This document shows, one piece after another, positions 4,180 through 54,242 of a DNA stretch of 64,000 nt (positions are counted from its first letter, which is position 1; every line of letters starts with the position of its first letter). Origin of the DNA: a virus. The position numbers and the translations under genes are program-made. The stretch spans positions 14,970 to 78,969 of the IMG/VR virus record IMGVR_UViG_3300021181_000008; one strand, given 5' to 3'. A model generated the notes under the pieces. It saw nothing but the letters and a program-made list of their open reading frames with translations, had not been told where the DNA came from and searched no databases.

Positions 4180-4904
4180 AAGTCGTCCCAGTACTCGCGG
4201 CGGACGAACTGTAGCCACTGCTCGACGACGCCCTCGTCAGCGACATCGGGCAGTACGCCGGGAATGTCGAACTCGCCCTCGGCCCACTTGAGGTAGTCCA
4301 CGGCCATGTCGAGGTTCCCGGCCGCCACCTCCTCGCCGAACAGGCGGCAGAGCCCTGCCTGACCGTCGCGCAGCCTGACCGTCAGCTTGCCTGTCCGGTG
4401 AAGTTCGACACCCTGCTCCAGCAGTCGCCACAGGTGGCGTGCGTGCTTCTCGGTGCGCTTGCGGGTGTCGGAGCTGAACGAGCCGTCCTCCCTGTTCTTG
4501 ATGCGGCGGAACTGCTGGCTGGCATAGCCGAAGTAGGCATCGCGGACGTACTTCTCCGACAGAAACGTCTTCCGGATGTCGATGAGCATCTCGCCCGCGT
4601 CCTGCGACACCTCGTACTCGTCCAGCCACAGCAGCTCGGTCACCGTGGGATTGCAGTGCAGCAGCAGGCCGGCCAGCTTGCCCGCTTCGTGGTAGGTGAA
4701 GTCGGGGGCGGTGCCGTGCCAGGTGGACGTCTTGACAGTGGGAGGATGCAGCCCGTGAAGCTGGGAAGTGGGCGCGACATAGCACCCGATCCGGTCAATG
4801 TCCGAGGCGGGAGTGGCAAGGCCATAGGCAGTCGAGCCGTTTATGCCACCGAGGATTAGTTCTCCGCGGGGATTGGGGTCTTCGAGAGGAAGCATGCGTG
4901 TCAT
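4176..4904 (-). CDS. Pol-beta superfamily nucleotidyltransferase (RlaP/YcgL-like)
   Basis: GSTAYGLATPASDIDRIG (GS...DxD), NPTVTELLW, YFGYASQQ, KHARHLWRLL. Confidence 0.88.
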   Translation of the reverse strand: MTRMLPLEDPNPRGELILGGINGSTAYGLATPASDIDRIGCYVAPTSQLHGLHPPTVKTSTWHGTAPDFTYHEAGKLAGLLLHCNPTVTELLWLDEYEVSQDAGEMLIDIRKTFLSEKYVRDAYFGYASQQFRRIKNREDGSFSSDTRKRTEKHARHLWRLLEQGVELHRTGKLTVRLRDGQAGLCRLFGEEVAAGNLDMAVDYLKWAEGEFDIPGVLPDVADEGVVEQWLQFVRREYWDDF

Positions 4905-4966: not shown

Positions 4967-5503
4967 ATGGCTACTGCACGCGACGGGTCGAACCCCGGCC
5001 GCACGGGCGTCCCTGCGCGGCAGGACCCGTCTCCCGCTCGCCACGGGCGGGCGTCGAGTCTTGACCCGACTGTTCAGGAAGGCCAGCTCCCCAGCGAGAT
5101 CTTCGGCCTTCCCACCGACATCAAGTCGAGCGGAATGAAGGGGTCCAGCGCTGCCAAGCAGCCGGCGGACGTCACCCTGCACCCCGGCCAGCTCGACGAC
5201 GACCTCGGCCACACCGCAGAGCAGTTCGTCACGGACTCCGGCATGCCGGGCTCGGGCGGCGCTTCACCGCAGGCTGGCGGCGAGTCCGTCACCTACACCG
5301 ACCCTTACGGGATCATCGGTGGCGTGAACCGCGACGTTCACACCAGCGGCGCGACCAGCGGCCCGGGCGACTGGACCACGTGGGGCGACGACAACGGCTT
5401 CAGCGGACCGACGCTGCCCGGCCTGGAGAACAACCGGCCGACCGACTCCGGCATCGGCCACGGCCACGTGAGCGCTCACGCGCACCCCAACGCCGGGCAG
5501 TAA
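4967..5503 (+). CDS. Gly/Asp/Ser-rich, probably disordered protein
   Basis: TATCCT -10 upstream and GAGGAG RBS. Internal repeats GQL and SGMxG. Confidence 0.7.
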   Translation: MATARDGSNPGRTGVPARQDPSPARHGRASSLDPTVQEGQLPSEIFGLPTDIKSSGMKGSSAAKQPADVTLHPGQLDDDLGHTAEQFVTDSGMPGSGGASPQAGGESVTYTDPYGIIGGVNRDVHTSGATSGPGDWTTWGDDNGFSGPTLPGLENNRPTDSGIGHGHVSAHAHPNAGQ

Positions 5504-8072: not shown

Positions 8073-9134
8073 GTGAAGATTCTCGCCTCGCACGACGGCG
8101 GTTCCGGCTGCGCCTGGTACCGGATGATACTCCCCCTTGAAGCGGTCGCTGAGTACGCCCCCGGCGTGGATGTCACCTTCCGCCGTGGCGGTATGGCGTC
8201 CATGGAGAACCCGCCGCCCCAGCTCCAGATAGATGATGTCGAGGGCATGGACGTGATGGTCGGCCAGCGGGTTAACGCGTACGAGGGGCTCGGGCTCTGG
8301 CGGCGCTGGAATACGCCGTGGCGTAGGACCGTCTACGAGAACGACGACGATGTTTTCAACATCACGCACGAGAACGTCGGTGCCTACGAGTCGTACAAGG
8401 AAGGATCCGAGCTGCGCGAAGCGGTCAAGCGCTACTGCGACACCGCCGCTCTGATTACCGTCTCCACTCCGCACCTGGGCGACCTGCACCGCGAGATGTC
8501 CCCCGGCGTGCCCGTGGAAGTCCTCCCCAACTACATCCCTGCGTTCGTGCTCGACTTGCCCCGCGATGAGAAGCCCCGGCCGCGTATCGGCTGGATGGGC
8601 GGCTCCAGTCACGTGCGCGATCTCGAAGAGGCCGCAGGCTCGGTCAGGCGCTTCATGCAGCGGCACGGTGACTGGGACATGTACGTGGCCGGCGCGGACT
8701 ACCGCCGATCTTTCAGGGTGCCCAAGGACCGCCTCTTCTACGTGCCGTGGCTGCACGTCAGCAATGACCCGAGGCTGTTCTACCGGATGATCGACTACGA
8801 CATCGGCATCTGCCCGCTGCTGGACACCCAGTTCGCCCGGTCCAAGAGCGCGATCAAGGCGCTGGAATACTCGGCGAGGGGCATTCCGGTAATCGCCAGC
8901 GACGTCGAGCCCTACCGGCGGTTCATTCACGACGGAGTGGACGGCTTCCTGGTTAAGACCCCGCACGAGTGGCTGAACCGACTCGAAACTCTCGCCAATG
9001 ACGAAGACCTGCGGCTCATGATGGGCGCGGCGGCGAAAGAGAACGCCCGGAAGCACACGATCGAGGAGCACTGGCCTGAATGGGTGAACGCGTACAAGAT
9101 GCTGTTCCCCGTGGACTGGGATTACCAGGGCTGA
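8073..9134 (+). CDS. GT-B glycosyltransferase (GT4-like)
   Basis: GCAWYRMILP, ENDDD, IGWMGGSSH, DIGICPL...KSAIKALEYSARGIPVIASDVEPY. Leaderless TAGACT-N7-GTG start. Confidence 0.92.
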   Translation: MKILASHDGGSGCAWYRMILPLEAVAEYAPGVDVTFRRGGMASMENPPPQLQIDDVEGMDVMVGQRVNAYEGLGLWRRWNTPWRRTVYENDDDVFNITHENVGAYESYKEGSELREAVKRYCDTAALITVSTPHLGDLHREMSPGVPVEVLPNYIPAFVLDLPRDEKPRPRIGWMGGSSHVRDLEEAAGSVRRFMQRHGDWDMYVAGADYRRSFRVPKDRLFYVPWLHVSNDPRLFYRMIDYDIGICPLLDTQFARSKSAIKALEYSARGIPVIASDVEPYRRFIHDGVDGFLVKTPHEWLNRLETLANDEDLRLMMGAAAKENARKHTIEEHWPEWVNAYKMLFPVDWDYQG

Positions 9135-10651: not shown

Positions 10652-11209
10652 ATGCATTTGCCATGGCGAGACATCCTGCCGGTTCCGACAGCGACCAGGG
10701 CCGTCAACACGTCGATGACCGAGAACGAGGCCGCCGAGCTGGCCGCTCTCGCCGAGGGAAAGGACGTGCTGGAGATCGGCTCGGCCAACGGGTTCTCGGC
10801 GTGCGCCATGGCCCTCGGCGGCGCTGAGAGCGTTACCGCGATCGACCCGCACTCCTGGGTGCCCGGCTCCCTGCCCGCAATGCAGGCGAACCTGAGCGCG
10901 TACGGCGTCGAGGACAAGGTGGACGTTATCGAGGCCACGTTCTACGACGCGTTCGAGCCGCTCAAGCAGGCGGGCCGGAAGTTCGGCTTCATCTTCATCG
11001 ACGGCGACCACACCGGCCCCGCCATCACGTTCGACGTGAACCACGCCTACGAACTCCTCGCGCCGGGCGGCGTCATCGCCTGCCACGACTACGGCGAGTG
11101 CTGCTGCATGGAAGTTCAGCCCGCGCTCGACGCGCTGTTCCCCAACGGGCCGACGCGGCTGACCGACACCCTGTTCATCGTGTACACCGAGGAGCCGTCC
11201 GATGGCTAA
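10652..11209 (+). CDS. Class I SAM-dependent methyltransferase (Methyltransf_24-like)
   Basis: VLEIGSANGFS, FIFIDGDH, LAPGGVIACHDY. Confidence 0.9.
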   Translation: MHLPWRDILPVPTATRAVNTSMTENEAAELAALAEGKDVLEIGSANGFSACAMALGGAESVTAIDPHSWVPGSLPAMQANLSAYGVEDKVDVIEATFYDAFEPLKQAGRKFGFIFIDGDHTGPAITFDVNHAYELLAPGGVIACHDYGECCCMEVQPALDALFPNGPTRLTDTLFIVYTEEPSDG

Positions 11210-12275
11210 GAAGATCCTCATCACCGGGGCCGGCGGGTTTGTCGGCCACCACTTCCTGGAGCACGTTCTCCAGCACACGAATATGGACGTCGTGTGCACC
11301 GACAGCTTCCGGCACAAGGGCCGCACCGACCGCATCCAGCAGGTGCTCGATAGCGAGCCGACCGACCTCAAGTTCGCGGTGATCAAGAGCTGGCGGGAGC
11401 GGCTGAGCGTCTTTACCCACGACATCAACGCGCCGTTCAGCGTCGGCCAGGTGGCGGATCTCGAAGACGTGGACTACATGGTCTGCTTCGCCTCTGAGAG
11501 CCACGTAGACAGGTCCATCTCCGATCCGGTCCCGTTCATCCGGAACAACGTCGAGGTGGCCCTGAACACGCTGGAGCTGGCCCGCAAGATCAAGCCGCAG
11601 GCGCTCGTCTGGATCAGCACCGACGAAGTGTACGGCCCGGTGGACGAGATGGACCTGACCGGCCACCCCGAGTGGGATCCGATCCTGCCGTCCAACCCCT
11701 ACAGCGGGAGCAAGGCGGCGCAGGAGGCCATCGCGATCTCCTACTGGCGCACGTACGGCGTCCCGCTGATCATCACCAACTGCATGAACCTCATCGGCGA
11801 GCGCCAGGACCCGGAGAAGTTCGTGCCGATGGTGATCAGCAAGGTGCTCAAGGGCGAGACGGTCACGATCCACGGCACCGAGACGGACATCGGGACGCGG
11901 CACTACCTGCACGCGCGCAACCTCGCGGACGGCATCCTGCACATCCTCACCCACCAGGAGCCGGCCGTGTTCCCCGCGCACCAGACGCGGTGGGGCCAGC
12001 GAGTTCACGGTATGCCGGACAGGTTCAACGTGGCGTCGGCCGACCGGATCGACAACCTGACGATGGCGCAGATGATCGCCGAGTTCGTCGGCCAGCCGCT
12101 GCACTACAGGCTGGTGGACTTCCACAGCACGCGGCCGGGCCACGACCCGCACTACGGCCTGTCCCCCGAGAAGCTGGCCATGACCGGCTGGGAGCTGCCC
12201 GTGCCGCTGCGCGAGAGCCTGGAGAAGACCGTGCAGTGGACCATGAAGCACCCCGAATGGCTAAAGGGCGAATAG
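11202..12275 (+). CDS. rmlB: dTDP-glucose 4,6-dehydratase (RmlB/RfbB-like)
   Basis: ILITGAGGFVG, FASESHVDRSI, ISTDEVYG, PSNPYSGSKAA, RQDPEKFVP, RPGHDPHY. Confidence 0.9.
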   Translation: MAKKILITGAGGFVGHHFLEHVLQHTNMDVVCTDSFRHKGRTDRIQQVLDSEPTDLKFAVIKSWRERLSVFTHDINAPFSVGQVADLEDVDYMVCFASESHVDRSISDPVPFIRNNVEVALNTLELARKIKPQALVWISTDEVYGPVDEMDLTGHPEWDPILPSNPYSGSKAAQEAIAISYWRTYGVPLIITNCMNLIGERQDPEKFVPMVISKVLKGETVTIHGTETDIGTRHYLHARNLADGILHILTHQEPAVFPAHQTRWGQRVHGMPDRFNVASADRIDNLTMAQMIAEFVGQPLHYRLVDFHSTRPGHDPHYGLSPEKLAMTGWELPVPLRESLEKTVQWTMKHPEWLKGE

Positions 12276-15428: not shown

Positions 15429-15749
15429 ATGAGGTCCGAGCCCGTACTGCTGCACGTTCCAGTTCAGGATTGGTACTGCCCCAACTGTGGGACTACCGAC
15501 CGGACTCCCGCCATGCCTCCGAACAGCTCGCAGTACCACAATTGCCCGCGCCTGCACTCGCTGAGCGCTCCCCTCGTCCGCGCCGGAGTCAAGGCCAAGG
15601 TCGAAGCGGTCGAGCGCGAGGACTACCTGTGCAAGGACACCCAGGCCACCGGGGATGACGGCAAGGTCTACATGCTCGTCCGCACTACCCGTGACGACGG
15701 CACTGATCTCAACGTCAACGCGCCCGTCGCTCGAATGAGGCTGACCTGA
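15429..15749 (+). CDS. Zn-ribbon hypothetical protein
   Basis: WYCPNCG...HNCP. Leaderless TACTCT-N6-ATG. Confidence 0.7.
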   Translation: MRSEPVLLHVPVQDWYCPNCGTTDRTPAMPPNSSQYHNCPRLHSLSAPLVRAGVKAKVEAVEREDYLCKDTQATGDDGKVYMLVRTTRDDGTDLNVNAPVARMRLT

Positions 15750-15877
15750 TGGGCCGGGCGTCGCGCAGGAAGCGCGAGCAGCGTGAGTCTGAGACCGAAG
15801 AGAAGCCGGTCGAGTGGACTGACCTGGTAGTTCAAGCAGGTGTCGCCATGGCGACCGGTAAGGGGCACGATCAGTAA
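15749..15877 (+). CDS. 42-aa peptide carrying one copy of the fibre repeat (LVVQAGVAMATG)
   Basis: TGATG and TAATG coupling on both sides. Not in the ORF track. Confidence 0.6.
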   Translation: MGRASRRKREQRESETEEKPVEWTDLVVQAGVAMATGKGHDQ

Positions 15878-18106: not shown

Positions 18107-20830
18107 GTGCCAATTCTCGGCCGCGGCCAACCGATAGCGCCGCACATACTTTACCGTGCCAAGTACGGCTCGCTGCAAGACAACTGGGCCTCCAACGACC
18201 TCTCGACGCTGTGGGGCACGTCGATCGGCACGATCGTCTACTCGTCCGGCCAGATCACCATTCAGGTAGACACCAGCTACAGCTCGGCGCTGAACACCCC
18301 CAACATCTACGACCTCACCAAGTCGTACTTCTACCTCAAGATCGCGCCGTACCAGAACACCAGCGTGCAGACTAGCGTGTCGTTCGGCACCAGCACCACC
18401 GGCTTCTTCTTCGGGCTCAGCGGGACGAACTTCAACGTCACCAAGATCATCGCCGGGGTGCAGACGGCGATCTCCAACACCACCTACGTTCCGTCCACTA
18501 TGGCCTGGTGGCGAGTTCACGAGGCCGGCGGAACCTTGTTCTTCGACACCGCGCCTGACTCCTCGGGCTCGCCCGGCACGTGGACTAACCAGTTCAACAC
18601 CCCGGACACTACGTTCACGGGCACTAACTTCAAGGCGCTGCCACTCTCGATCTTCTGTGGTGACTTCGGCTCCGACCCGACCGGCACCACGACGATCTTC
18701 GCGATCAACACCTCTCAGGGGCCGGTCACCCTTACCGCGAATGCCGGGCTCGCCTCGGCCACCGGAGTTGCGTTCAACCCTGCCGTAGCGCTGACTATAC
18801 CTGCGGGTGTCGCCTTGGCTACCGGTGTCGGTCTCGGCCCGACCCTCACCATCAAGCCTGTACCGGCCGCAGCGCTGAGCACGGGCGCAGCCCTGAACCC
18901 AGCCACCAACATCACCTTCCCTGCCGGACTGGCATCGGGCACGGGCGCAGCCAACGCGCCTCCACCGGGTGTCGGACCCACGCCGACCGCTGCCACTGCA
19001 ACGGGTGCCGCGTTCAACGCCACGGGTGGATCCACAGGAGTTACCGCTAGCGCTGGTCTGGCCTCGGCCACCGCTGCTGCGTTCAACGTGCTGCCCGGAG
19101 TCGGCCCCAAGCCGCCGCAGGCCGCCGCTACCGGCGTTGCGAACAACGCCACAGTCAACCTCGTCGTCGTTGCCGGAGTCGCCCAGGCTACCGGCGCTGC
19201 GTCCAACCCTGCCGTCGTCCTGGGAGTTCCTGCTGGCGTCGCGCTGGCCACGGGCGCTGCGAACAACGCCACGGTCAACCTCACGGTCACGGCCGGAGTA
19301 GCGCAGGCTACTGGTGCCGCAAGCAACCCGAGCACGAACCTCACCTTCCCCGCTGGAGTAGCGCAGGCTACCGGTGCGGCCAACAATGTCACTCCGGGTG
19401 TCGGTCCCAAGCCGACTGCCGCGCTCGCCACGGGTGCCGCGTTCAACCCGAGCACCAACATCACCTTCCCCGCAGGCGTGGCGCAGGCTACCGGTGCGGC
19501 CTCGAACCCCACCCCCGGCGTCGGCCCGACCCCCACGGTTGCTACGGCCACGGGCACGGCGTTCAACGCCTCGGCCAGCACCTCAAGCGGTGGCACCGGC
19601 AACGCCGGGCTCGCCTCGGCCACGGGCGCTGCGTTCAACCCGACGCCGGGTGTCGGTCCTACCCCGACTGCGGCCACCGCCTCCGGTGCTGCGTTCAACG
19701 CCACACAGACGCTCGGTGTAACACCCGCTGTAGCACAGGCTACGGGTGCTGCGTTCAATCCCAAGACCAACCTCGTCGTCACCGCAGGCGTGGCCCAGGC
19801 CACCGGAGCGGCCTCGAACGCCGGCACCGGCATCACCGGCAAGCCCACGGCGGCCACGGCCACTGGTACCGCTTTTGGTACCACTATGGGCGTCGGACCC
19901 AAGCCGACTGCCGCGCTCGCCACAGGAACTTCCCAGACGCCCTCGATAGCTACAGTCGTGGGTGCAGGTGTAGCTTCTGCTGTAGGTTCTGCCTACAACC
20001 CCACGTTCGTCCTCCCGCCGCGGAGTCCCCTGGCCCTGGGCGGCAGCGCGGTGGGGCAGTTCCCGTACGGCGGCACCATCACGCCGGTCACCTACGACGG
20101 CACGGCAGCCACGGTTGCCAGCACCTACGGCGGCGGCATCACGCCCCTGACCTACGACGCCGTGTGCACTCCGGTGACGATCGACGGCACCGCCGCCACG
20201 GTGGCCAGCACCTACGGCGGCACGCTCACGCTGCTGAACTACGGCGGCGGCGCTGTGCCTGTGACCTACAACGGCACCATCACGCCGGTCACCATCGACG
20301 GCTCGGCCGTAACGGTGGCCAACACCTACGGCGGCACCCTCACGCTGCTGAACTACGGCGGCGGGGTCACTCCGGCGACCATCGACGGTTCGATCACGCT
20401 TCCGAACCTCGGTGGATCGTGCTCCTCGCAGGCGAACACCTACGGAGGTACTGTAGGAGTAGCCACGATTGACGGATCTTTGACGGGATGGACAATGCAG
20501 CAAATTGCCCTGACCCTCGCCGAAAACAACGACGAGACGGTCAACGTCGCCATCACGTCTAGCGGCTCCCCGCTGAACCTGACCGGCGCGACGATCAACA
20601 TGTACCTCAAGACCGCTGCCGGAACCCCGGACGGGGGAGCCACGCTGCTCTCGTCTGCTGGCGGCAGCCCAGCGATCACGATCACCAGCCCCTCGGGCGG
20701 GCTGTGCACCGTGGCGATCCCGCGCGCTGACCTGACGGCCGAGACGAACACCTTCTACCGCATCGACGTGGTGTTCTCGGGTCTACAGAACACTGCCATC
20801 TACGGCTCGATCACCTGGATCACGCTATGA
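18107..20830 (+). CDS. Long repetitive virion fibre protein with C-terminal BppU-like Ig domain
   Basis: About 20 repeats of AG(V/L)A(Q/S/L)ATG(A/V)AxN, then TYGG/IDG repeats. C-terminus PLNLTGATINMYLK...ITITSPSGGLCTVAIP. Confidence 0.75.
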   Translation: MPILGRGQPIAPHILYRAKYGSLQDNWASNDLSTLWGTSIGTIVYSSGQITIQVDTSYSSALNTPNIYDLTKSYFYLKIAPYQNTSVQTSVSFGTSTTGFFFGLSGTNFNVTKIIAGVQTAISNTTYVPSTMAWWRVHEAGGTLFFDTAPDSSGSPGTWTNQFNTPDTTFTGTNFKALPLSIFCGDFGSDPTGTTTIFAINTSQGPVTLTANAGLASATGVAFNPAVALTIPAGVALATGVGLGPTLTIKPVPAAALSTGAALNPATNITFPAGLASGTGAANAPPPGVGPTPTAATATGAAFNATGGSTGVTASAGLASATAAAFNVLPGVGPKPPQAAATGVANNATVNLVVVAGVAQATGAASNPAVVLGVPAGVALATGAANNATVNLTVTAGVAQATGAASNPSTNLTFPAGVAQATGAANNVTPGVGPKPTAALATGAAFNPSTNITFPAGVAQATGAASNPTPGVGPTPTVATATGTAFNASASTSSGGTGNAGLASATGAAFNPTPGVGPTPTAATASGAAFNATQTLGVTPAVAQATGAAFNPKTNLVVTAGVAQATGAASNAGTGITGKPTAATATGTAFGTTMGVGPKPTAALATGTSQTPSIATVVGAGVASAVGSAYNPTFVLPPRSPLALGGSAVGQFPYGGTITPVTYDGTAATVASTYGGGITPLTYDAVCTPVTIDGTAATVASTYGGTLTLLNYGGGAVPVTYNGTITPVTIDGSAVTVANTYGGTLTLLNYGGGVTPATIDGSITLPNLGGSCSSQANTYGGTVGVATIDGSLTGWTMQQIALTLAENNDETVNVAITSSGSPLNLTGATINMYLKTAAGTPDGGATLLSSAGGSPAITITSPSGGLCTVAIPRADLTAETNTFYRIDVVFSGLQNTAIYGSITWITL
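18725..20000 (+). repeat. Coding tandem repeats of about 63 bp (21 aa)
   Basis: Recurring GCGCAGGCTACCGGTGCGGC and GCGTTCAACCC units. Confidence 0.8.
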
Positions 20831-21867
20831 GCGCCACCGTCTACTACGACAACGCCGTGGACGCGGCTGCGGTCATCCCCGTGCAGTTCATCAACTACCT
20901 CACGGGCGTCGCGGCCGACCCGACTGCGATCTCCTGCGTGGTCACCGACCCGCTGGGCAACGTCACCACGTACACCTACGCGGCGGGCTCCGGCCTCAAC
21001 GTCGTCACCCGCACGGGCACCGGCAACTACAGCCTGACGCTCGACGGCCTCACCTCGGCCGGGCTGTGGACGTTCGTGTGGATCGGCTCGGGCAACAGCG
21101 TCCAGCAGACCACGCCCGGCACCTTCCGCATCGTCGCGCTGACCCAGGTCGGCCTCGGCATGCAGTACTGGTACGTGGGCAAGGAAGAACTCAAGTCGCG
21201 CCTGTCGATCCCGAACTCCGACACCGCGAACGACTTCGAGATCCAGCTCGCCATCCAGTGCGTCACCAACTGGATCAACGAGTACTGCGGCGAGCACTTC
21301 TACCAGATCGCCGAGACGCGCACGTTCATGAACGACAACATCTACACGCTGCCGATCGACGCCCTGGTGAGCACGCCCAGCATCGTTTCGAACACAGTGG
21401 TAAAGATCGACTACCAGGGCACGGGAGTCTTCTCGACCAACTGGGGCGCTCCCTCGTTCGCCGGCTCTCCTGGCGCGAACCCGACCTACACCCTCAAGCT
21501 GGGCACCGAGTCGCGGCGCGACAACTGGAATGTCAACGCGGCGGGAGTTCCCCGTCCGTACCGGCAGCTCCAGGTGCTCACCGGCCTCAACAACGCCGCC
21601 GGAGGCCCTGGTCAGTGGCTGCCGTTCATCTGGCCGTTCACGTTCGAGGACCGGATCCAGATTCAGGGTACGTGGGGCTGGAATTTCGTCCCGCCGAATG
21701 TCCAGAACGCGGCCATGATGCTCGCGGTGGACATGTTCAAGAGCAAGGACGCGCCGTGGGGCGTGGCGGGCATCGGAGACCTCGGCATCGTCAAGGTCCA
21801 ATCTAACCCGTGGGTGGTGGAACTTCTTCGGCCGTACATCAACACCCGTCGAAAGGTAGGCGTTTGA
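20827..21867 (+). CDS. Head-to-tail adaptor (gp6/gp15-like) with an extra N-terminal Ig-like domain
   Basis: YVGKEELKSRLSI...AIQCVTNWINEYCGEHF...GTWGWNFVPPNVQNAAMMLAVDMFKSKDAPWG...ELLRPY. Confidence 0.85.
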   Translation: MSATVYYDNAVDAAAVIPVQFINYLTGVAADPTAISCVVTDPLGNVTTYTYAAGSGLNVVTRTGTGNYSLTLDGLTSAGLWTFVWIGSGNSVQQTTPGTFRIVALTQVGLGMQYWYVGKEELKSRLSIPNSDTANDFEIQLAIQCVTNWINEYCGEHFYQIAETRTFMNDNIYTLPIDALVSTPSIVSNTVVKIDYQGTGVFSTNWGAPSFAGSPGANPTYTLKLGTESRRDNWNVNAAGVPRPYRQLQVLTGLNNAAGGPGQWLPFIWPFTFEDRIQIQGTWGWNFVPPNVQNAAMMLAVDMFKSKDAPWGVAGIGDLGIVKVQSNPWVVELLRPYINTRRKVGV

Positions 21868-23097: not shown

Positions 23098-24262
23098 GGC
23101 CCCGGTCAAGGCGAAGGTAGCTCCCAAGGCCAAGGTCGCGACCAAGGTCAAGGCGAAGCCCAAGGGGCTCGTGCTCACCTCGGCGCAGTGGAAAGCGTAC
23201 AACAAGGCGTACAACGCCACAGCTCGCGCCGCAGCCCTCGCCGCTGCCGCCCAGCGGTTCCGAAAGGGACGGCTACAGTCGGCGTACAGCACGATAAAGA
23301 AGGCGAACATAGCCACTAGCCACGCCCGGACTGCGGCCATCGCCGCGTACGCCGCCAAGCAGAGCTTCCGGCAGTCCCAGCTCGGCCACCAGAACACCGC
23401 GCTCCGGACGCGGATCGAGCAGGACATGTTCAACCACGCCACGATCGCCGGCCGGAAGCAGTACATCCAGGGCGGCGTCAAGGGCTACGCGCACCGTGCC
23501 GTCATGCGCACCATGGACACAGCTCAGGCCACCTCCTACGAGCAGGCGATATTCGCGGCTGCGGCCCGGGCCGCCAAGGCGGGCAAGTCCACCGGCAAGA
23601 AGCGCGGCAGGCCATCCAAGGGCGGGGCTGGGGCCGCGATCAACGCTCAGGCGGCGGCAGCCGGGCTCAGGGCGGCCAAGGCGGTCAAGGGCACGTCCAA
23701 GGTAGCCAAGGCCAAGGCGAAAAAGGCGGCAGCGGCCAAGCCAGCGGTCAAGGCGTCGGGCGGTAAGTCCACCAAGGCACCCGCAGCCAAGCCCAAGGCC
23801 CGCACCGCGCCCTACCTCGGCGTCATGCGGACGGTGACGTTCGACGGCAACGGCTACTGGCACCACGGCAACAACGAGTGGTCCGGCACCTGCATCATGA
23901 CCGCCGTGGCCAACGCCCTGCACCACCAGACCAAGTGGCGGCTGCCCGACGAGGACATCGCCTACTGGACCGGGCGGGCCGGCAGGCGGCCGACCATCGG
24001 CGGAGTTCTCTTCATGCTGTACGCCCTCCAGCCGTGGCCCGAGGTGGAGATCGACGTGCCGATCGCCGGAGCTGTGGCCGGCCCGCGCATCCTCGGCTTC
24101 GAGAACCAGTTCGGCGACCACGCGGCGTACGCCCTCGGGGACGGCACGATGGTCAGCTACGGCGAGCTGGTCGATCAGGCCGAGAACGTCGAGGAAGCGT
24201 GGTCGATCCGGTTCACTGAAGTAGCTGGCGTGCCCACGACCGTAGAAGCTCCCGAAGAGTGA
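23081..24262 (+). CDS. Lys/Ala-rich histone-like protein fused to a papain-fold peptidase-like domain
   Basis: PAKA-type repeats over about 240 aa, then GNNEWSGTCIMTAVANAL...GDHAAY...MVSYG. Confidence 0.7.
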   Translation: MAAKAKAPVKAKVAPKAKVATKVKAKPKGLVLTSAQWKAYNKAYNATARAAALAAAAQRFRKGRLQSAYSTIKKANIATSHARTAAIAAYAAKQSFRQSQLGHQNTALRTRIEQDMFNHATIAGRKQYIQGGVKGYAHRAVMRTMDTAQATSYEQAIFAAAARAAKAGKSTGKKRGRPSKGGAGAAINAQAAAAGLRAAKAVKGTSKVAKAKAKKAAAAKPAVKASGGKSTKAPAAKPKARTAPYLGVMRTVTFDGNGYWHHGNNEWSGTCIMTAVANALHHQTKWRLPDEDIAYWTGRAGRRPTIGGVLFMLYALQPWPEVEIDVPIAGAVAGPRILGFENQFGDHAAYALGDGTMVSYGELVDQAENVEEAWSIRFTEVAGVPTTVEAPEE

Positions 24263-24440
24263 ACTGCACTGGCTCGTTACGCTTCGGCGGTGGGGCTTGC
24301 AGCGTCTTGTTGATCTCCTCCAGGGCGTCCGCGATGCGGGCGAGGGTAAGGTACCTGTCCTGCTCGGCCGCCCTGTTCTTCACGAGCCGTAGCTGAACTT
24401 CGGGGGGTAGCTTGTCCGCACTGTGCTTTTCTGCGCTCAT
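24213..24440 (-). CDS. Hypothetical protein
   Basis: Leaderless TAAGCT-N7-ATG on the - strand. Confidence 0.55.
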   Translation of the reverse strand: MSAEKHSADKLPPEVQLRLVKNRAAEQDRYLTLARIADALEEINKTLQAPPPKRNEPVQFTLRELLRSWARQLLQ

Positions 24441-24469: not shown

Positions 24470-24952
24470 GTGGCTAGTCTTGGTGCAGTGCGCGACGCCC
24501 TGGCAGCGTCTATTACCGCTAACGCGGTCCCCCAGCTCAACTGCGTCGCGCAGCCGCTCGACCAGATAACGCCGCCGTGCGCTCTCATCCTGCCGTCACG
24601 GTCCAACGTGGCCAAGTTCGGCATCTGCCTGGGTGAGGGCCTGGTCACTGACCAGGGAGTACCGTTCTCCCCGGCTGAGTTCAACCTGGACATCCTGATC
24701 ATCGTGGCGCACGCCTCCACCACCGACCGCGTGCAGCAGATGCTCGACCAGTGGCTGGGGTTCGAGAACACTATGGACCCCGACACCGGCAACCAGACGG
24801 TCTCCGTGGCGTTCGCCATCGCGCAGGACCCCACCCTCGGCGGCTCTGTGGACTACGCCGAGTGCAACAACGTCATCAGTTACGGTCCGGTAGATTACAA
24901 CGGCACGCCCTATTTCGGGGCACGGATCTCAGTGACGGTGAGCACGCAGTGA
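24470..24952 (+). CDS. Tail terminator / tail completion protein
   Basis: VRDALAA...ITPPCALILP...QQMLDQWL...AIAQDPTLGGSVD...YFGARISVTV. Confidence 0.8.
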   Translation: MASLGAVRDALAASITANAVPQLNCVAQPLDQITPPCALILPSRSNVAKFGICLGEGLVTDQGVPFSPAEFNLDILIIVAHASTTDRVQQMLDQWLGFENTMDPDTGNQTVSVAFAIAQDPTLGGSVDYAECNNVISYGPVDYNGTPYFGARISVTVSTQ

Positions 24953-25209
24953 TGGACTACCCAGCACACGCCAAGGTCATCCTGACCGGCCCGGAAAGGG
25001 TGCGCACGACCTGCCTCGGCCTGGAGATCAAGACGCCGGGTGAGGAAGTGGAACTCGAACTCGTCGATTTCAACATCGACTACCGCGTCCCCCGCGTGGA
25101 TGTCTCGTCCATCGGCGACGCCAATCTCGCCTGGGTTTCGAGCTACCCGGAGATCACCATCCGGGGCACCGGCTACCCCAAGATCAACAGGGATGGCACC
25201 TGGCGATGA
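24952..25209 (+). CDS. Truncated paralog 1 of the tail tube protein
   Basis: DFNIDYRVPRVDVSSIGDANLAWVSSYPE versus tail tube DWTINFTVAKVDVTALGDTNLVWVAGLPD. Confidence 0.72.
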   Translation: MDYPAHAKVILTGPERVRTTCLGLEIKTPGEEVELELVDFNIDYRVPRVDVSSIGDANLAWVSSYPEITIRGTGYPKINRDGTWR

Positions 25210-25454
25210 GCCGCATCCACAACAAGAACGCGAAGATCCTCTTCTACGGCCCGGAGAGGGAAACATGCCTCGGGCTCATAATCCCCGGCGAGAAGACTGA
25301 GATCGAAGTCTCGGGCCTGAACATGGACTTCTCCGACATCAAGTACTCATCAGGCATGCTCGCGGGACTCAAGGACGCGTCCGGTGAGTTCACCGGCTAT
25401 TTCGATAAGGGTGATTTCGATGGCGAGGATTCTCCTAGTCCATCCGGGGCCTGA
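25206..25454 (+). CDS. Truncated paralog 2 of the tail tube protein
   Basis: MSRIHNKN...LAGLKDASGEFTGYFD versus tail tube MSRIHGRN...VAGLPDASGDFTGFFD. Confidence 0.78.
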   Translation: MSRIHNKNAKILFYGPERETCLGLIIPGEKTEIEVSGLNMDFSDIKYSSGMLAGLKDASGEFTGYFDKGDFDGEDSPSPSGA

Positions 25455-26520
25455 CTTCTCCGTCGCCGACGTGCACAACGGCTGGTACAAGGCGTTCAAG
25501 AAGCTCGGCCACCAGGTGATGGTGTACAACACCAACGAGCGGCTCACGTTCTATGGCAACGCGCTGATGCCGACGAACGATCCCAAGCCCTGCTCGCACG
25601 GCCGGATCGAGACCAAGCAGGCAATGCCCGACCCGCTGCACGTCACCCAGCACGCCACGGCCGGCCTGATGGAGACCTGCTACCTGTTCTGGCCCGATGT
25701 CATCTTCTTCATCAGCGGGTTCTTCCAGAATGCGGCGACGCTCCAGGTGCTGCGAGAGCGCAACCACAAGATCGTTATGCTGCACACCGAGAGCCCGTAC
25801 CAGGATGACGAGCAGATGGTCCGCGGGCAGTTCGCCGACCTCAACCTGCTCAACGACCCGGCGAATATACAGGCGTGGCGCGACCTGGACATCCCGGTGA
25901 AGTACGCGCCGCATTCTTACGACCCGGACGTCCACTATCCGGATGCGCTCGGCCTCAAGAAGGAATCCGACTTCACGTTCATCGGCACGGCATTCAACTC
26001 GCGGCAGAAGTTCTTCCACGAAATGGACTTCACCGGCCTGGAGGTGTCCTTCGGCGGCAACGGCTGGGACCACGTGCTGCCCGAGTACGCCGACATCCTC
26101 AAGTTCCTCCGGCACGAGCCCGACACCTGCGTGGACAACTCCGAGACGGCGCGCATCTATCGCATCAGCAAGACCGGGATCAACTTCTACCGGCGCGAGG
26201 GCGAGGCCGAGCACGTCGGCGAGGGCTGGGCGATGGGACCGCGTGAAGTTGAAATGGCCGCCTGCGGCCTGTTCTTCCTGCGCGACTCGCGCCCCGAGTC
26301 CGACGAGGTGTTCGGCGGCAACCCGGCGCTTGGTATACCTGATGTGCTACCCACGTTCTCCGGCCCTGGTGACGCGGCCGAGAAGATCAAGTGGTGGGTG
26401 GCGCACGACGAGCTGCGGACGAAGTGGGCGGGCATGGCCCGCGACCGCATTTACGACCGCACGTTCAGCTCCTCGGCGCGCAACGCCTGCAAGTGGATGG
26501 AAGAGGCCGGAGTACTGTGA
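25420..26520 (+). CDS. GT-B glycosyltransferase (CgeB-like) inside the tail module
   Basis: ILLVHPG, TESPYQD, PHSYDPDVHYP, DFTFIGT, GINFYR, PREVEMAACG. Confidence 0.88.
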   Translation: MARILLVHPGPDFSVADVHNGWYKAFKKLGHQVMVYNTNERLTFYGNALMPTNDPKPCSHGRIETKQAMPDPLHVTQHATAGLMETCYLFWPDVIFFISGFFQNAATLQVLRERNHKIVMLHTESPYQDDEQMVRGQFADLNLLNDPANIQAWRDLDIPVKYAPHSYDPDVHYPDALGLKKESDFTFIGTAFNSRQKFFHEMDFTGLEVSFGGNGWDHVLPEYADILKFLRHEPDTCVDNSETARIYRISKTGINFYRREGEAEHVGEGWAMGPREVEMAACGLFFLRDSRPESDEVFGGNPALGIPDVLPTFSGPGDAAEKIKWWVAHDELRTKWAGMARDRIYDRTFSSSARNACKWMEEAGVL

Positions 26521-26819
26521 TCTGCCTGCCCTGCCGTAAGGCCGCCGTGATGTGGCGGGTCGGCGTGTGCACCACCGAGGGCTTTCCTCACTCGTCCGGT
26601 GAGCTGATCACCGAATGCGAGCGCGTTGTCCGCCATGAGATCGAGCAGGCGGGCGGGGTTGGCCAGCTTCTGGTCGCCGCCAAGGACGCTCACCAGAAGC
26701 AGGAAGTCAATCGGGGACTGCTCTACCACGTCACCCAGCTTCACGGGCCGGAGTACTGCCCCGGCTACACATGGTGTGATTGCCAGCATCATGTTCTGGA
26801 CAAGCCTCTTTCCCCTTGA
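26517..26819 (+). CDS. Small Cys/His Zn-binding protein
   Basis: MICLPCR...H...CPG..WCDCQH. Confidence 0.6.
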   Translation: MICLPCRKAAVMWRVGVCTTEGFPHSSGELITECERVVRHEIEQAGGVGQLLVAAKDAHQKQEVNRGLLYHVTQLHGPEYCPGYTWCDCQHHVLDKPLSP

Positions 26820-26847
26820 GGTAGCACTCCCTACACTGGGCATAGGA
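26816..26847 (+). promoter_or_regulatory. Late promoter box, copy 2
   Basis: 28/32 identical to 324-355. -10 TACACT at 26832-26837. Confidence 0.65.
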
Positions 26848-26885
26848 CCCCCGTCGTGGTCGTGCGCACAGTGCACGGAGCCGGC
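26842..26885 (+). ncRNA. Putative structured cis-regulatory RNA in the tail tube gene leader
   Basis: Homologous to 1712-1758. Inner stem CGTGCGC-ACA-GTGCACG. Confidence 0.55.
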
Positions 26886-26917
26886 ACAGGAACGAACCCC
26901 GGAAAGGGTGACTGTCC

Positions 26918-27376
26918 GTGTCGCGTATCCATGGCCGTAACGGCATGGTCTACCTCGCTGCAACCGGCCCTGGAGGTGGAGCTGCCTCTGGTACTGCGGT
27001 GGCGTCCCCGCTGGCGTTCGTTAGCGACTGGACCATCAACTTCACCGTCGCCAAGGTCGATGTGACCGCGCTCGGTGACACCAACCTCGTCTGGGTGGCG
27101 GGTCTTCCTGACGCGTCCGGCGACTTCACCGGCTTCTTCGACACCGCGACCGCGCAGACGTACACCGCGTCGGTTGACGGCCTGAGCCGAAACTTCTACC
27201 TGTACCCGTCGCTGCTTGGCGTGCAGGGTGCGTCTCCGGGCCAGTACTTCTTCGGAGCCATCCTCCCCGACTTCAGCACCGCTGGCGGCGTGGCCTCGGC
27301 CGTGACGTTCAAGAGCACGTGGAACGCGGCGACTCAGGTTGCCCGCTACCCGGCTGTCGGTATCGTCGGTACCTGA
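26918..27376 (+). CDS. Major tail (tube) protein
   Basis: WTINFT...VDVTALGD...VAGLPDASGDFTGFFD...FYLYP..YFFG...GGVASAVTF tube-family pattern. Has its own promoter and terminator and precedes the chaperones. Confidence 0.85.
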   Translation: MSRIHGRNGMVYLAATGPGGGAASGTAVASPLAFVSDWTINFTVAKVDVTALGDTNLVWVAGLPDASGDFTGFFDTATAQTYTASVDGLSRNFYLYPSLLGVQGASPGQYFFGAILPDFSTAGGVASAVTFKSTWNAATQVARYPAVGIVGT

Positions 27377-27485: not shown

Positions 27486-27911
27486 GTGGCTTCCACGGAA
27501 ACCCCCACCAAGCGTCAGCCTGCCGCGCGCAAGCCTCGCGTCAGCGAGTCCACCATGCAGCTCGCGGTGCAGGATCAGGACGCCCGCGTCCCCGAGGACG
27601 ATCGCGCTGTCGAGACCAACGACGGCACCAAGGCCCCGCTGTGCGGCAAGCTGTTCAAGGTGGACACCGAGCAGGGTCTCATGCCCCTCATGGAGTGGGC
27701 TGCCGCGAACGACTCGGCCGACCCGCAGAACGGCCCCCAGCTCGCCGCGCTGTTCTACATGCTCAAGGACATCGTGCACCCCGATGAGTGGGACGAGTTC
27801 CGCGTGCACGCCAAGGCGTCCAAGGCCAAGGGGCCGGACTTCCTGAAGTTCCAGGAGGCGGCGGCCGAGGTGATCGCGGCGGTCCCTACCGAGCAGCCAG
27901 AAACCTCCTGA
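27486..27911 (+). CDS. Tail assembly chaperone (G-like)
   Basis: Lies between tail tube and tape measure. Motif LFYMLKDIVHPDEWDEF. Confidence 0.75.
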   Translation: MASTETPTKRQPAARKPRVSESTMQLAVQDQDARVPEDDRAVETNDGTKAPLCGKLFKVDTEQGLMPLMEWAAANDSADPQNGPQLAALFYMLKDIVHPDEWDEFRVHAKASKAKGPDFLKFQEAAAEVIAAVPTEQPETS

Positions 27912-53162: not shown

Positions 53163-53492
53163 TTACAGTGACTTCCCGTACGTCACGCCGTACATGAACG
53201 CGCCCCGCGCCTCGTTCTTGCCCTCGGTGCCGTCGTCGCCCTCGCAGTGGGTTTCGCGCCAGTAGTCCTCGAACTCAGCCTCAAGGCCGAAGGGCTGGCC
53301 GTCCGTGCGCTCCATCGAGATGACCGGGATCGCGAAGCCCGCGCCTGCGAGCCGGGTCTGGCCGATGGTCGCCTTGCCGCTGGCGTCGGTGTCGATGTCC
53401 TGCACGATCTTCGCGCACACGGCGTCGGCTCCGTGCGGGTGATTGACGCGCACCCTGAGCTTGAGGTTGAGTTCTTCGGGGTCACGAGACAT
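53163..53492 (-). CDS. Hypothetical protein
   Basis: AGGAGG RBS. Confidence 0.65.
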   Translation of the reverse strand: MSRDPEELNLKLRVRVNHPHGADAVCAKIVQDIDTDASGKATIGQTRLAGAGFAIPVISMERTDGQPFGLEAEFEDYWRETHCEGDDGTEGKNEARGAFMYGVTYGKSL

Positions 53493-53642
53493 GGTGTCCT
53501 CCTGTGAAGTGGGGTGTGAAGCCGCGACTAACGGGTGCCGGGTGCGTCCATCCAGTTTCCGAGTCGTCCGCTTCTCTCAAGGACGCGTTACGCTGTCAAT
53601 GAGCTGGGGGTTGTGAAGTTGATAGTCCAGTCGCCGTGAGGC

Positions 53643-54242
53643 TTACTTGGCGTGGGCGGGAACCTTGGCCGCCGGGGCGGTGCGCGCGATGGCCGTGGGA
53701 GCGCCTGTGAGCGAGTAGGAGTGCGTGGTCATGTTCCACGTCGCCGGGCCGCCCACGGTGTCCGCTGTGTCCTCCACGCGGTCGATGTAGGGGGTGCCGT
53801 CAGCGGCGAGGAAGATGACGAACGTCCCCTCGGAGCTGACCGGGGCGTAGATCCCGTTCGGGTCCTCCTGACCCACCACGTCGTCGGCCCAGGAGCCGCT
53901 GTTGCTGGCTGGCTTGAGCGGGTTGGAGAGGCTGGCCGAGTCGGGGATGCCGAAGCCGATGGACGGGCCGGAGTTGATCGGGTCGCGGTCGCCGTTGTGC
54001 ATGACGAACGTGGTGGTCTGCACGTCGTTGACCTCGGCCAGCTCGATGTCGATCATGTTCTCGCGCTCTTGGCTGAAGGTGACGTTCGGCAGCGGCTGGT
54101 TGTTCTCCAGGTTGGTCGAGTCCTGGTTCTGCTGGGCGGACTCCTGGTTGCCGTTGCTGTTGCACGCGGCGAGCCCGATGCCGAGCCCGACTACGACGAT
54201 GGCGGTGCCCGCGATGGTGCGGGTGCGGCCGGTGAACTTCAT
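53643..54242 (-). CDS. Lipoprotein
   Basis: Signal peptide with lipobox LAAC. Motif SIGFGIP..ASLSNP...QEDPNGIYAP.SSEGTFV. Confidence 0.8.
   Translation of the reverse strand: MKFTGRTRTIAGTAIVVVGLGIGLAACNSNGNQESAQQNQDSTNLENNQPLPNVTFSQERENMIDIELAEVNDVQTTTFVMHNGDRDPINSGPSIGFGIPDSASLSNPLKPASNSGSWADDVVGQEDPNGIYAPVSSEGTFVIFLAADGTPYIDRVEDTADTVGGPATWNMTTHSYSLTGAPTAIARTAPAAKVPAHAK

Follow-up and report, generated by a model that had tools for sequence, protein, structure and literature searches.

Why does a phage keep two half-length relatives of its own tail tube protein inside its tail operon, and what could they do there? The question is raised by two small ORFs, here called mini1 (85 aa, 24952-25209, plus strand) and mini2 (82 aa, 25206-25454, plus strand), in a 64,000-nucleotide stretch of viral DNA (the window). 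The original prediction, made from this stretch alone, was that they are tandem miniature paralogs of the tube protein acting as decoys for host sensors, as poisons of competing phages or as caps or adaptors of the phage's own tube.

Two half-length tube paralogs in the tail operon

The source record in IMG/VR is linear and 78,969 bp long, with a G+C content of ~62-66% around mini1 and mini2. Relatives of its tube protein occur on 278 viral contigs and also on contigs assigned to two MAGs, one of Streptosporangiaceae and one of Actinomycetota, so the phage probably fits an uncultured soil actinophage. The isolated-phage collection held no near relative, and the best tube match there was to Arthrobacter phage major tail proteins (27% identity, E 0.2). 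A tyrosine integrase was not found in the 79-kb record, whose completeness is estimated at 67%.

The minis lie within a block of structural genes. A head-tail adaptor (20827-21867, phrog_442) is encoded upstream of the tail terminator (160 aa, 24470-24952, plus strand; phrog_17840, E 4.5e-12), which stands ahead of a glycosyltransferase in related loci also. Here, mini1 and mini2 separate the terminator from that glycosyltransferase (25420-26520, plus strand; PF13524, E 1.6e-11), which was traced in related loci by tblastn at 44-78% identity. A conserved spacer or leader of 397 nt (26521-26917) leads to the gene for the major tail (tube) protein (152 aa, 26918-27376, plus strand; phrog_10528), a family assignment shared by 31/31 members of the tube family (best E 5e-11). 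The next gene (27486-27911, plus strand) is a putative tail assembly chaperone by its position, which is also that seen after the tube gene in relatives; Pfam and PHROG searches returned no family match for it. A 1691-aa ORF then occupies the tape-measure position. The order terminator, glycosyltransferase, tube, chaperone recurs in nearly all of the ~130 loci fetched around tube homologs. Just upstream of the terminator, and opposite in orientation to the structural operon, there is a 75-aa ORF on the minus strand (24213-24440, GC3 0.74).

Both minis are homologous to the tube and to each other. BLASTP aligned mini1 to the tube over 37 aa (41% identity, E 1e-9), mini2 to the tube over 77 aa (29% identity, E 5e-7) and mini1 to mini2 over 39 aa (49% identity, E 4e-10). 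When either mini was the phmmer query, the tube ORF was matched in essentially every related locus (1,892 ORFs). Profile comparison, which had been proposed as a check, agreed: with family alignments (31 members for the tube), hhalign matched mini1 37-70 to tube 34-67 (P 96%, E 3.5e-9), mini2 1-68 to tube 1-76 (P 97.5%, E 6.5e-12) and the two minis to each other (P 96.7%). These three methods bear out the predicted tandem of miniature tube paralogs that diverged as a family. They equally support the claim that both ORFs cover the N-terminal half of the tube only (residues 1-77), with alignments stopping at tube residue 67-77. Judged by these similarities, the tube gene at 26918-27376 is the parent of the mini genes. 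A single gene split by a frameshift was also considered and rejected, since the two ORFs match one and the same part of the tube and none of 1.84 billion representative proteins was a fused form.

Curated models did not recognise the minis. Neither matched Pfam or PHROG at E <= 0.1, and among 22 mini-family members run against PHROG there was one weak match to phrog_1407 (E 0.29) and one to a chaperone PHROG (E 0.36). NCBIfam gave no match for the minis, and PADLOC, a library of defence rather than anti-defence proteins, gave none for the minis or the tube. As a lead only, an ESM Atlas feature search placed both minis near clusters of ~80-aa 'tail tube domain' proteins. These short clusters may be fragments, or short forms may be commoner than annotated.

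Across the whole virus record, matches to the tube protein were confined to the tube gene, mini1 and mini2. The minis had been grouped with sequences at 15749-15877 and 53613-53634 into a wider system of self-derived mimics, and we found no basis for that link. The first, an ORF of 42 aa, resembles at residues 24-37 the AGVAQATGA repeat unit of a 907-aa protein (18107-20830; best 11/14 identical), an overlap of only ~14 aa. The second, at 53612-53632 on the minus strand, is a 19/21-nt copy of tube codons 37-43 (27026-27046 in the tube gene), located in an intergenic spacer whose flanking genes (53163-53492 and 53643-54242) are both on the minus strand. Shuffled sequences are expected to give 0 such matches. 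By its setting, this copy is best described as a DNA- or RNA-level oddity and not a coded mimic. A plus-strand transcript across it would be antisense to the tube mRNA.

Narrow distribution and a variable gene slot

The ~130 loci around tube homologs, drawn from the 278 viral contigs, were searched with an HMM of the mini family. Minis were present in four: the window, L004 and L005, with two each at the same positions, and L019, with one mini2-like gene. By terminator, glycosyltransferase and chaperone identity, L004, L005 and L019 are also the nearest relatives of the window. Phages with tubes 75-81% identical to that of the window carry no minis. Tail assembly in those relatives thus proceeds without need for them and, as these relatives never had minis, the minis are accessory. 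Absence from relatives had been named in advance as evidence against a function, and the outcome was divided: the closest relatives keep the minis, whereas more distant ones lack them. Going by this distribution, the minis are optional and young, and confined to a shallow subclade.

Wider searches yielded only small proteins of the same kind. Eight relatives of mini1 (78-86 aa, 64-82% identity) and ten of mini2 (69-88 aa, 54-89% identity; plus P0022-P0024) were found, and related small proteins formed ~20 metagenomic protein clusters (69-103 aa). In a profile search of the 1.84 billion representative proteins, six clusters of minis emerged at the 50% level, and fused or longer forms were absent. 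The giant proteins P0025-P0028 in that search were discarded as repeat-summed artefacts, each single stretch scoring <=10.7 bits. Two scans of metagenome contigs with the mini alignments found nothing, and the same alignments matched only L004 and the L005 contig among viral contigs.

The place where the minis sit varies among relatives. Elsewhere, the terminator and glycosyltransferase genes directly abut or are separated by HNH endonuclease genes (L015:2137-2679; L017:3084-3608), a small membrane ORF (L013:2875-3276) or unrelated small ORFs; an accessory gene occupies the junction at L053:3278-3565. These varied contents mark the junction as an accessory-gene slot, or hot spot, in this phage clade, as far as gene content can define one. 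In a further locus, L049, we observed two tube-like pieces, one resembling tube 1-102 (4529-4861, 35% identity) and one resembling tube 44-152 (5025-5330, 70% identity). The pieces may stem from a tube gene that was broken or rearranged, or represent another partial copy of independent origin.

The single mini2-like gene of L019 (L019:1353-1580) starts on the terminator stop through a GTGA overlap. Its own stop codon is lost through a CCT-to-CCG change that is synonymous in the overlapping glycosyltransferase codon, adding ~120 aa. A synonymous change in the enzyme that removes the mini stop shows that mini2 owes its Ser/Pro-rich C-terminal tail to overprinting on the glycosyltransferase N-terminus; the tail is not a feature of its own. 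This bears on the proposal that the minis serve the adjacent glycosyltransferase, either as a tube-like handle that recruits the enzyme to tube subunits or by being glycosylated themselves. The last 35 nt of mini2 do overlap the enzyme's start (ATG 25420), and a large sugar-pathway block lies in the virion module. However, nearly all relatives that lack minis also have the enzyme between terminator and tube, which makes an adaptor role unlikely; the mini2 tail is a mere overprint of the enzyme's conserved N-terminus, and the minis lack the tube's Ser/Thr/Gly-rich variable loop. The predicted link to the enzyme is thus not indicated, and we regard such a partnership as very improbable. Upstream, the sugar-pathway block includes a glycosyltransferase (8073-9134, phrog_7162) and an NDP-sugar epimerase (11202-12275, phrog_540) inside the virion gene block and, together with the glycosyltransferase of the tail module, suggests glycosylation of the virion.

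Coding constraint and complementary tube segments

Mini1 and mini2 are intact and tightly joined to their neighbours. The terminator TGA (24950-52) overlaps the mini1 ATG (24952-54) as TGATG, and the mini1 TGA overlaps the mini2 ATG as ATGA (25206-09). The same start and stop overlaps are present in L004 and L005, bearing out the claim that both ORFs are intact and translationally coupled. GC3 was 0.84 for mini1 and 0.82 for mini2, compared to 0.79-0.90 for neighbouring genes and 0.42 for a non-coding frame of the spacer. RNA-library contigs identical to the phage span the mini1/mini2 junction (25075-25241) and the mini2/glycosyltransferase junction (25311-25461). These contigs come from two soil metatranscriptome studies in which DNA carry-over is possible and mini stretches without contigs are not interpretable; they are a weak indication that the mini region is transcribed.

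Selection was estimated as omega (Nei-Gojobori, NG86) in pairwise comparisons among the window, L004 and L005, with Fisher p values. Mini1 gave omega 0.32-0.50 in 3/3 pairs (p 2e-4 to 0.02). Mini2 gave 0.22 between the window and L004 (p 2e-5) and 0.67-0.80, not significant, in the window-L005 and L004-L005 pairs, so that omega lay at 0.22-0.50 in four of the six mini comparisons. The values for neighbouring genes were 0.16-0.21 (tube), 0.19-0.27 (terminator), 0.36-0.47 (glycosyltransferase) and 0.36-0.40 (chaperone). Thus, the dN/dS comparison that had been suggested as a check revealed purifying selection on mini1 in every pair and on mini2 in one of three, but the mini2 pairs involving L005 were not significant.

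The conserved spacer ahead of the tube gene is 73-76% identical at the nucleotide level in L004 and L005, and its plus-frame ORF (26549-26819), with the GC3 of 0.42, is non-coding. A minus-strand ORF across it (26451-26963) has 50-54% amino acid conservation in L004 and L005. RNA-library contigs from the two studies begin at 26857 and 26865, where a DNA contig continues through, a weak hint of a 5' end of the tube transcript or of a processing site.

The two minis retain different parts of the N-terminal half of the tube. Mini1 keeps the tube's predicted β-hairpin segment, DFNIDYRVPRVDVSSIGDANLAWV, matching tube 37-60, with a nearly intact middle (VPRVDVSSIGDANLAWV compared to VAKVDVTALGDTNLVWV in the tube), and it carries an invariant tail specific to mini1, YPEITIRGTGYP. 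It lacks the N-terminal strand of the tube and the tube's most conserved motif. Mini2 and the single-copy forms keep both of these, the strand as MSRIHNKN (MSRIHGRN in the tube) and the most conserved motif of the tube family, GLxDASGxFTG, as GLKDASGEFTGYFD (GLPDASGDFTGFFD in the tube), and their hairpin or middle region is short, indel-rich and hypervariable. Both minis had been described as sharing a private insert, GPER..TCLGL.I..PGE. The motif is indeed derived and common to both, yet nothing was inserted: the ETCLGL-I-PGE stretch takes the place of the hypervariable Gly/Ala/Ser loop and the next strand of the tube at about equal length.

The retained segments use the same codon as the tube for 8/15 and 8/12 of the identical residues. 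On this ground, we discarded the idea that the tube gene had recently converted the minis, as synonymous sites have diverged. This divergence indicates that the segments were preserved by selection at the protein level and that the duplication is old.

These observations were weighed against the possibility that the minis are functionless remnants of a partial tube-gene duplication, drifting to loss. Their narrow distribution, the mini2 omega of 0.67-0.80 with L005 and the lost stop codon in L019 would fit such drift. In contrast, all seven mini copies known as DNA have open frames and coupled starts, mini1 is constrained in every pair, GC3 is of the coding type and the duplication is old. The motifs TCLGL, ITIRGTGYP and DASGEFTGY are invariant across family proteins that are only 54-89% identical. 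Decaying duplicates, an outcome that would have counted against the original prediction, are not what the GC3, omega and conserved relatives indicate, and we consider the remnant explanation improbable as a whole. Neutral decay is unlikely for mini1 and is conceivable for some mini2 copies. Collectively, these results identify mini1 and mini2 as real, selected accessory genes of the expressed type.

The segment retained by mini1 may correspond to the long β2-β3 hairpin of solved siphophage tubes. This mapping draws on general knowledge of siphophage tube folds, on the description of the SPR and YSD1 tubes (PMC10981675) and on a low-confidence model. AlphaFold2 gave an all-β model of mini1 with low confidence (pLDDT 66.4), and its model of the tube was unusable (pLDDT 40.6). 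Searches with the mini1 model returned nothing above noise, neither with Foldseek against BFVD (best E 0.16) nor with VIA-align against a wide PDB set (best Z 2.4), and a PDB sequence-profile search with the tube alignment gave chance antibody matches only. A predicted complex of mini1 and mini2 scored 0.02, which speaks neither for nor against binding.

Possible origin and role of the half-tube proteins

Taken together, the sequence comparisons show how the minis arose. The tube gene of the phage itself was partially duplicated, and the copy, covering its 5' half, entered the variable slot between the terminator and glycosyltransferase genes. There, the variable loop of the tube gave way to the new β-rich segment (ETCLGL-I-PGE). 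A tandem duplication followed, after which the two copies kept complementary tube segments.

Are the minis then still tube proteins? They are homologous to the tube family (PHROG 10528, 9522 and 1407, with a weak link to Pfam PF06199, Phage_tail_2) over residues 1-77 and lie in the same operon and on the same strand as the tube gene. In contrast to the tubes of this clade (140-155 aa), they are half as long and lack the C-terminal half with its helix, outer strands and C-terminal arm; a new conserved segment stands in for the variable loop, and they lie ahead of the glycosyltransferase and not ahead of the chaperones. Their length, their position, the lack of a direct match to the PHROG or Pfam tube models and their non-universality (4/~130 loci) place them outside the tube family proper, yet by their alignments they clearly derive from it.

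Tube-fold paralogs with complete domains are well known in phage tails: the terminator (lambda gpU), the Dit N-domain, the T4 tube initiators gp48 and gp54 and the internal duplication in T5 pb6. They act at tube interfaces and are essential and widely conserved. To our knowledge, all described tube-fold paralogs keep the whole domain and are essential. The minis are likewise tail genes that derive from the tube or share its fold, but they are half-domains with overt similarity to their own phage's tube, are optional and are restricted to a shallow subclade. In the literature searched, we found no description of standalone half-tube genes. The minis vary a known theme, that of tail genes derived from the tube.

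What the minis do is best approached from what they have lost and kept. Without the C-terminal half of the tube fold, a mini would be unable to complete the usual tube ring, and it would still display N-terminal surfaces that hardly vary across the tube family. We suggest, with a probability of roughly 40%, that the minis are non-polymerising tube look-alikes and, as the economical mechanism, compete for proteins that bind the N-terminal half of the tube, serving either conflict or the control of assembly. In conflict, they would mask or compete for a host sensor that detects the tube monomer, or interfere with co-infecting relatives. Their optional presence, their accessory slot and their faster evolution than the core tail genes lead us to rank a role in conflict first; an accessory contribution to tail assembly in the phage itself comes close behind.

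Several observations argue against this ranking. The late position in the tail operon and the coupling to a structural gene would suit a minor tail or assembly protein equally well. Omega for the minis is not above that of the glycosyltransferase or chaperone, and positive selection was not seen in the pairs among the window, L004 and L005; the mini2 of L005, at 0.67-0.80, and the single mini of L019, without its stop codon, also fit poorly. The hairpin mapping involves low-confidence models (pLDDT 66 for mini1 and 40 for the tube).

The minis may instead be minor tail or assembly proteins made in terminator-like amounts, which could bind the final tube ring, the terminator or the complex of tape measure and chaperone. 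As such, they could tune tube initiation or termination, or hold back early polymerisation of tube monomers. They directly follow the terminator in the tail operon with overlapping stop and start codons, are co-oriented with it, have no promoter-like site that we could find nearby and keep the most conserved surfaces of the tube family, all of which suits such a role. However, relatives with tubes 75-81% identical do without minis, half a tube domain would be unable to close a ring by the usual contacts, and the PHROG tail families do not match the minis. On balance, a minor role in assembly or capping is nearly as likely as one in conflict.

One form of the look-alike model is that the minis are complementary half-domain mimics, each presenting a different tube epitope. 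They would be decoys or shields against host sensors that detect the tube monomer, or would attack co-infecting relatives as dominant-negative weapons. We regard this specific form as conceivable but rather unlikely. The bacterial sensor DSR2 detects monomeric tube protein, and the β2-β3 loop of the tube is essential for its activation (PMC10981675). Its response is stopped by the phage protein DSAD1, which is unrelated to tube proteins and binds another conformation of the sensor (PMC10981675, PMC11087589). Mini1 keeps the predicted equivalent of the β2-β3 loop. The likeness to DSAD1 and DSR2 would be one of logic only, for a phage known here from its sequence alone.

A second analogy is with eukaryotic microProteins such as Id and LITTLE ZIPPER, truncated paralogs that keep only an interaction surface and act as dominant negatives by forming non-productive complexes. 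The homology searches place the minis alongside them in two respects, derivation from a larger oligomerising protein and retention of a part of it. MicroProteins belong to another kingdom and another fold, and a mechanism shared with the minis would be an analogy.

In this phage, selection has maintained a copy of half the tube domain. This copy has duplicated, and the resulting pair has partitioned the conserved surfaces of the tube, while relatives thrive without either. If the minis are only a minor assembly aid, they would be an evolutionary curiosity of modest weight in a clade of uncultured soil actinophages. If the mimic or decoy reading is true, they would point to a general and undescribed counter-defence strategy. 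If they act on partners of the tube, they would provide a natural viral example of dominant-negative or decoy "micro-proteins" and a way to learn how the tube monomer is dealt with, or hidden from immunity, before assembly.
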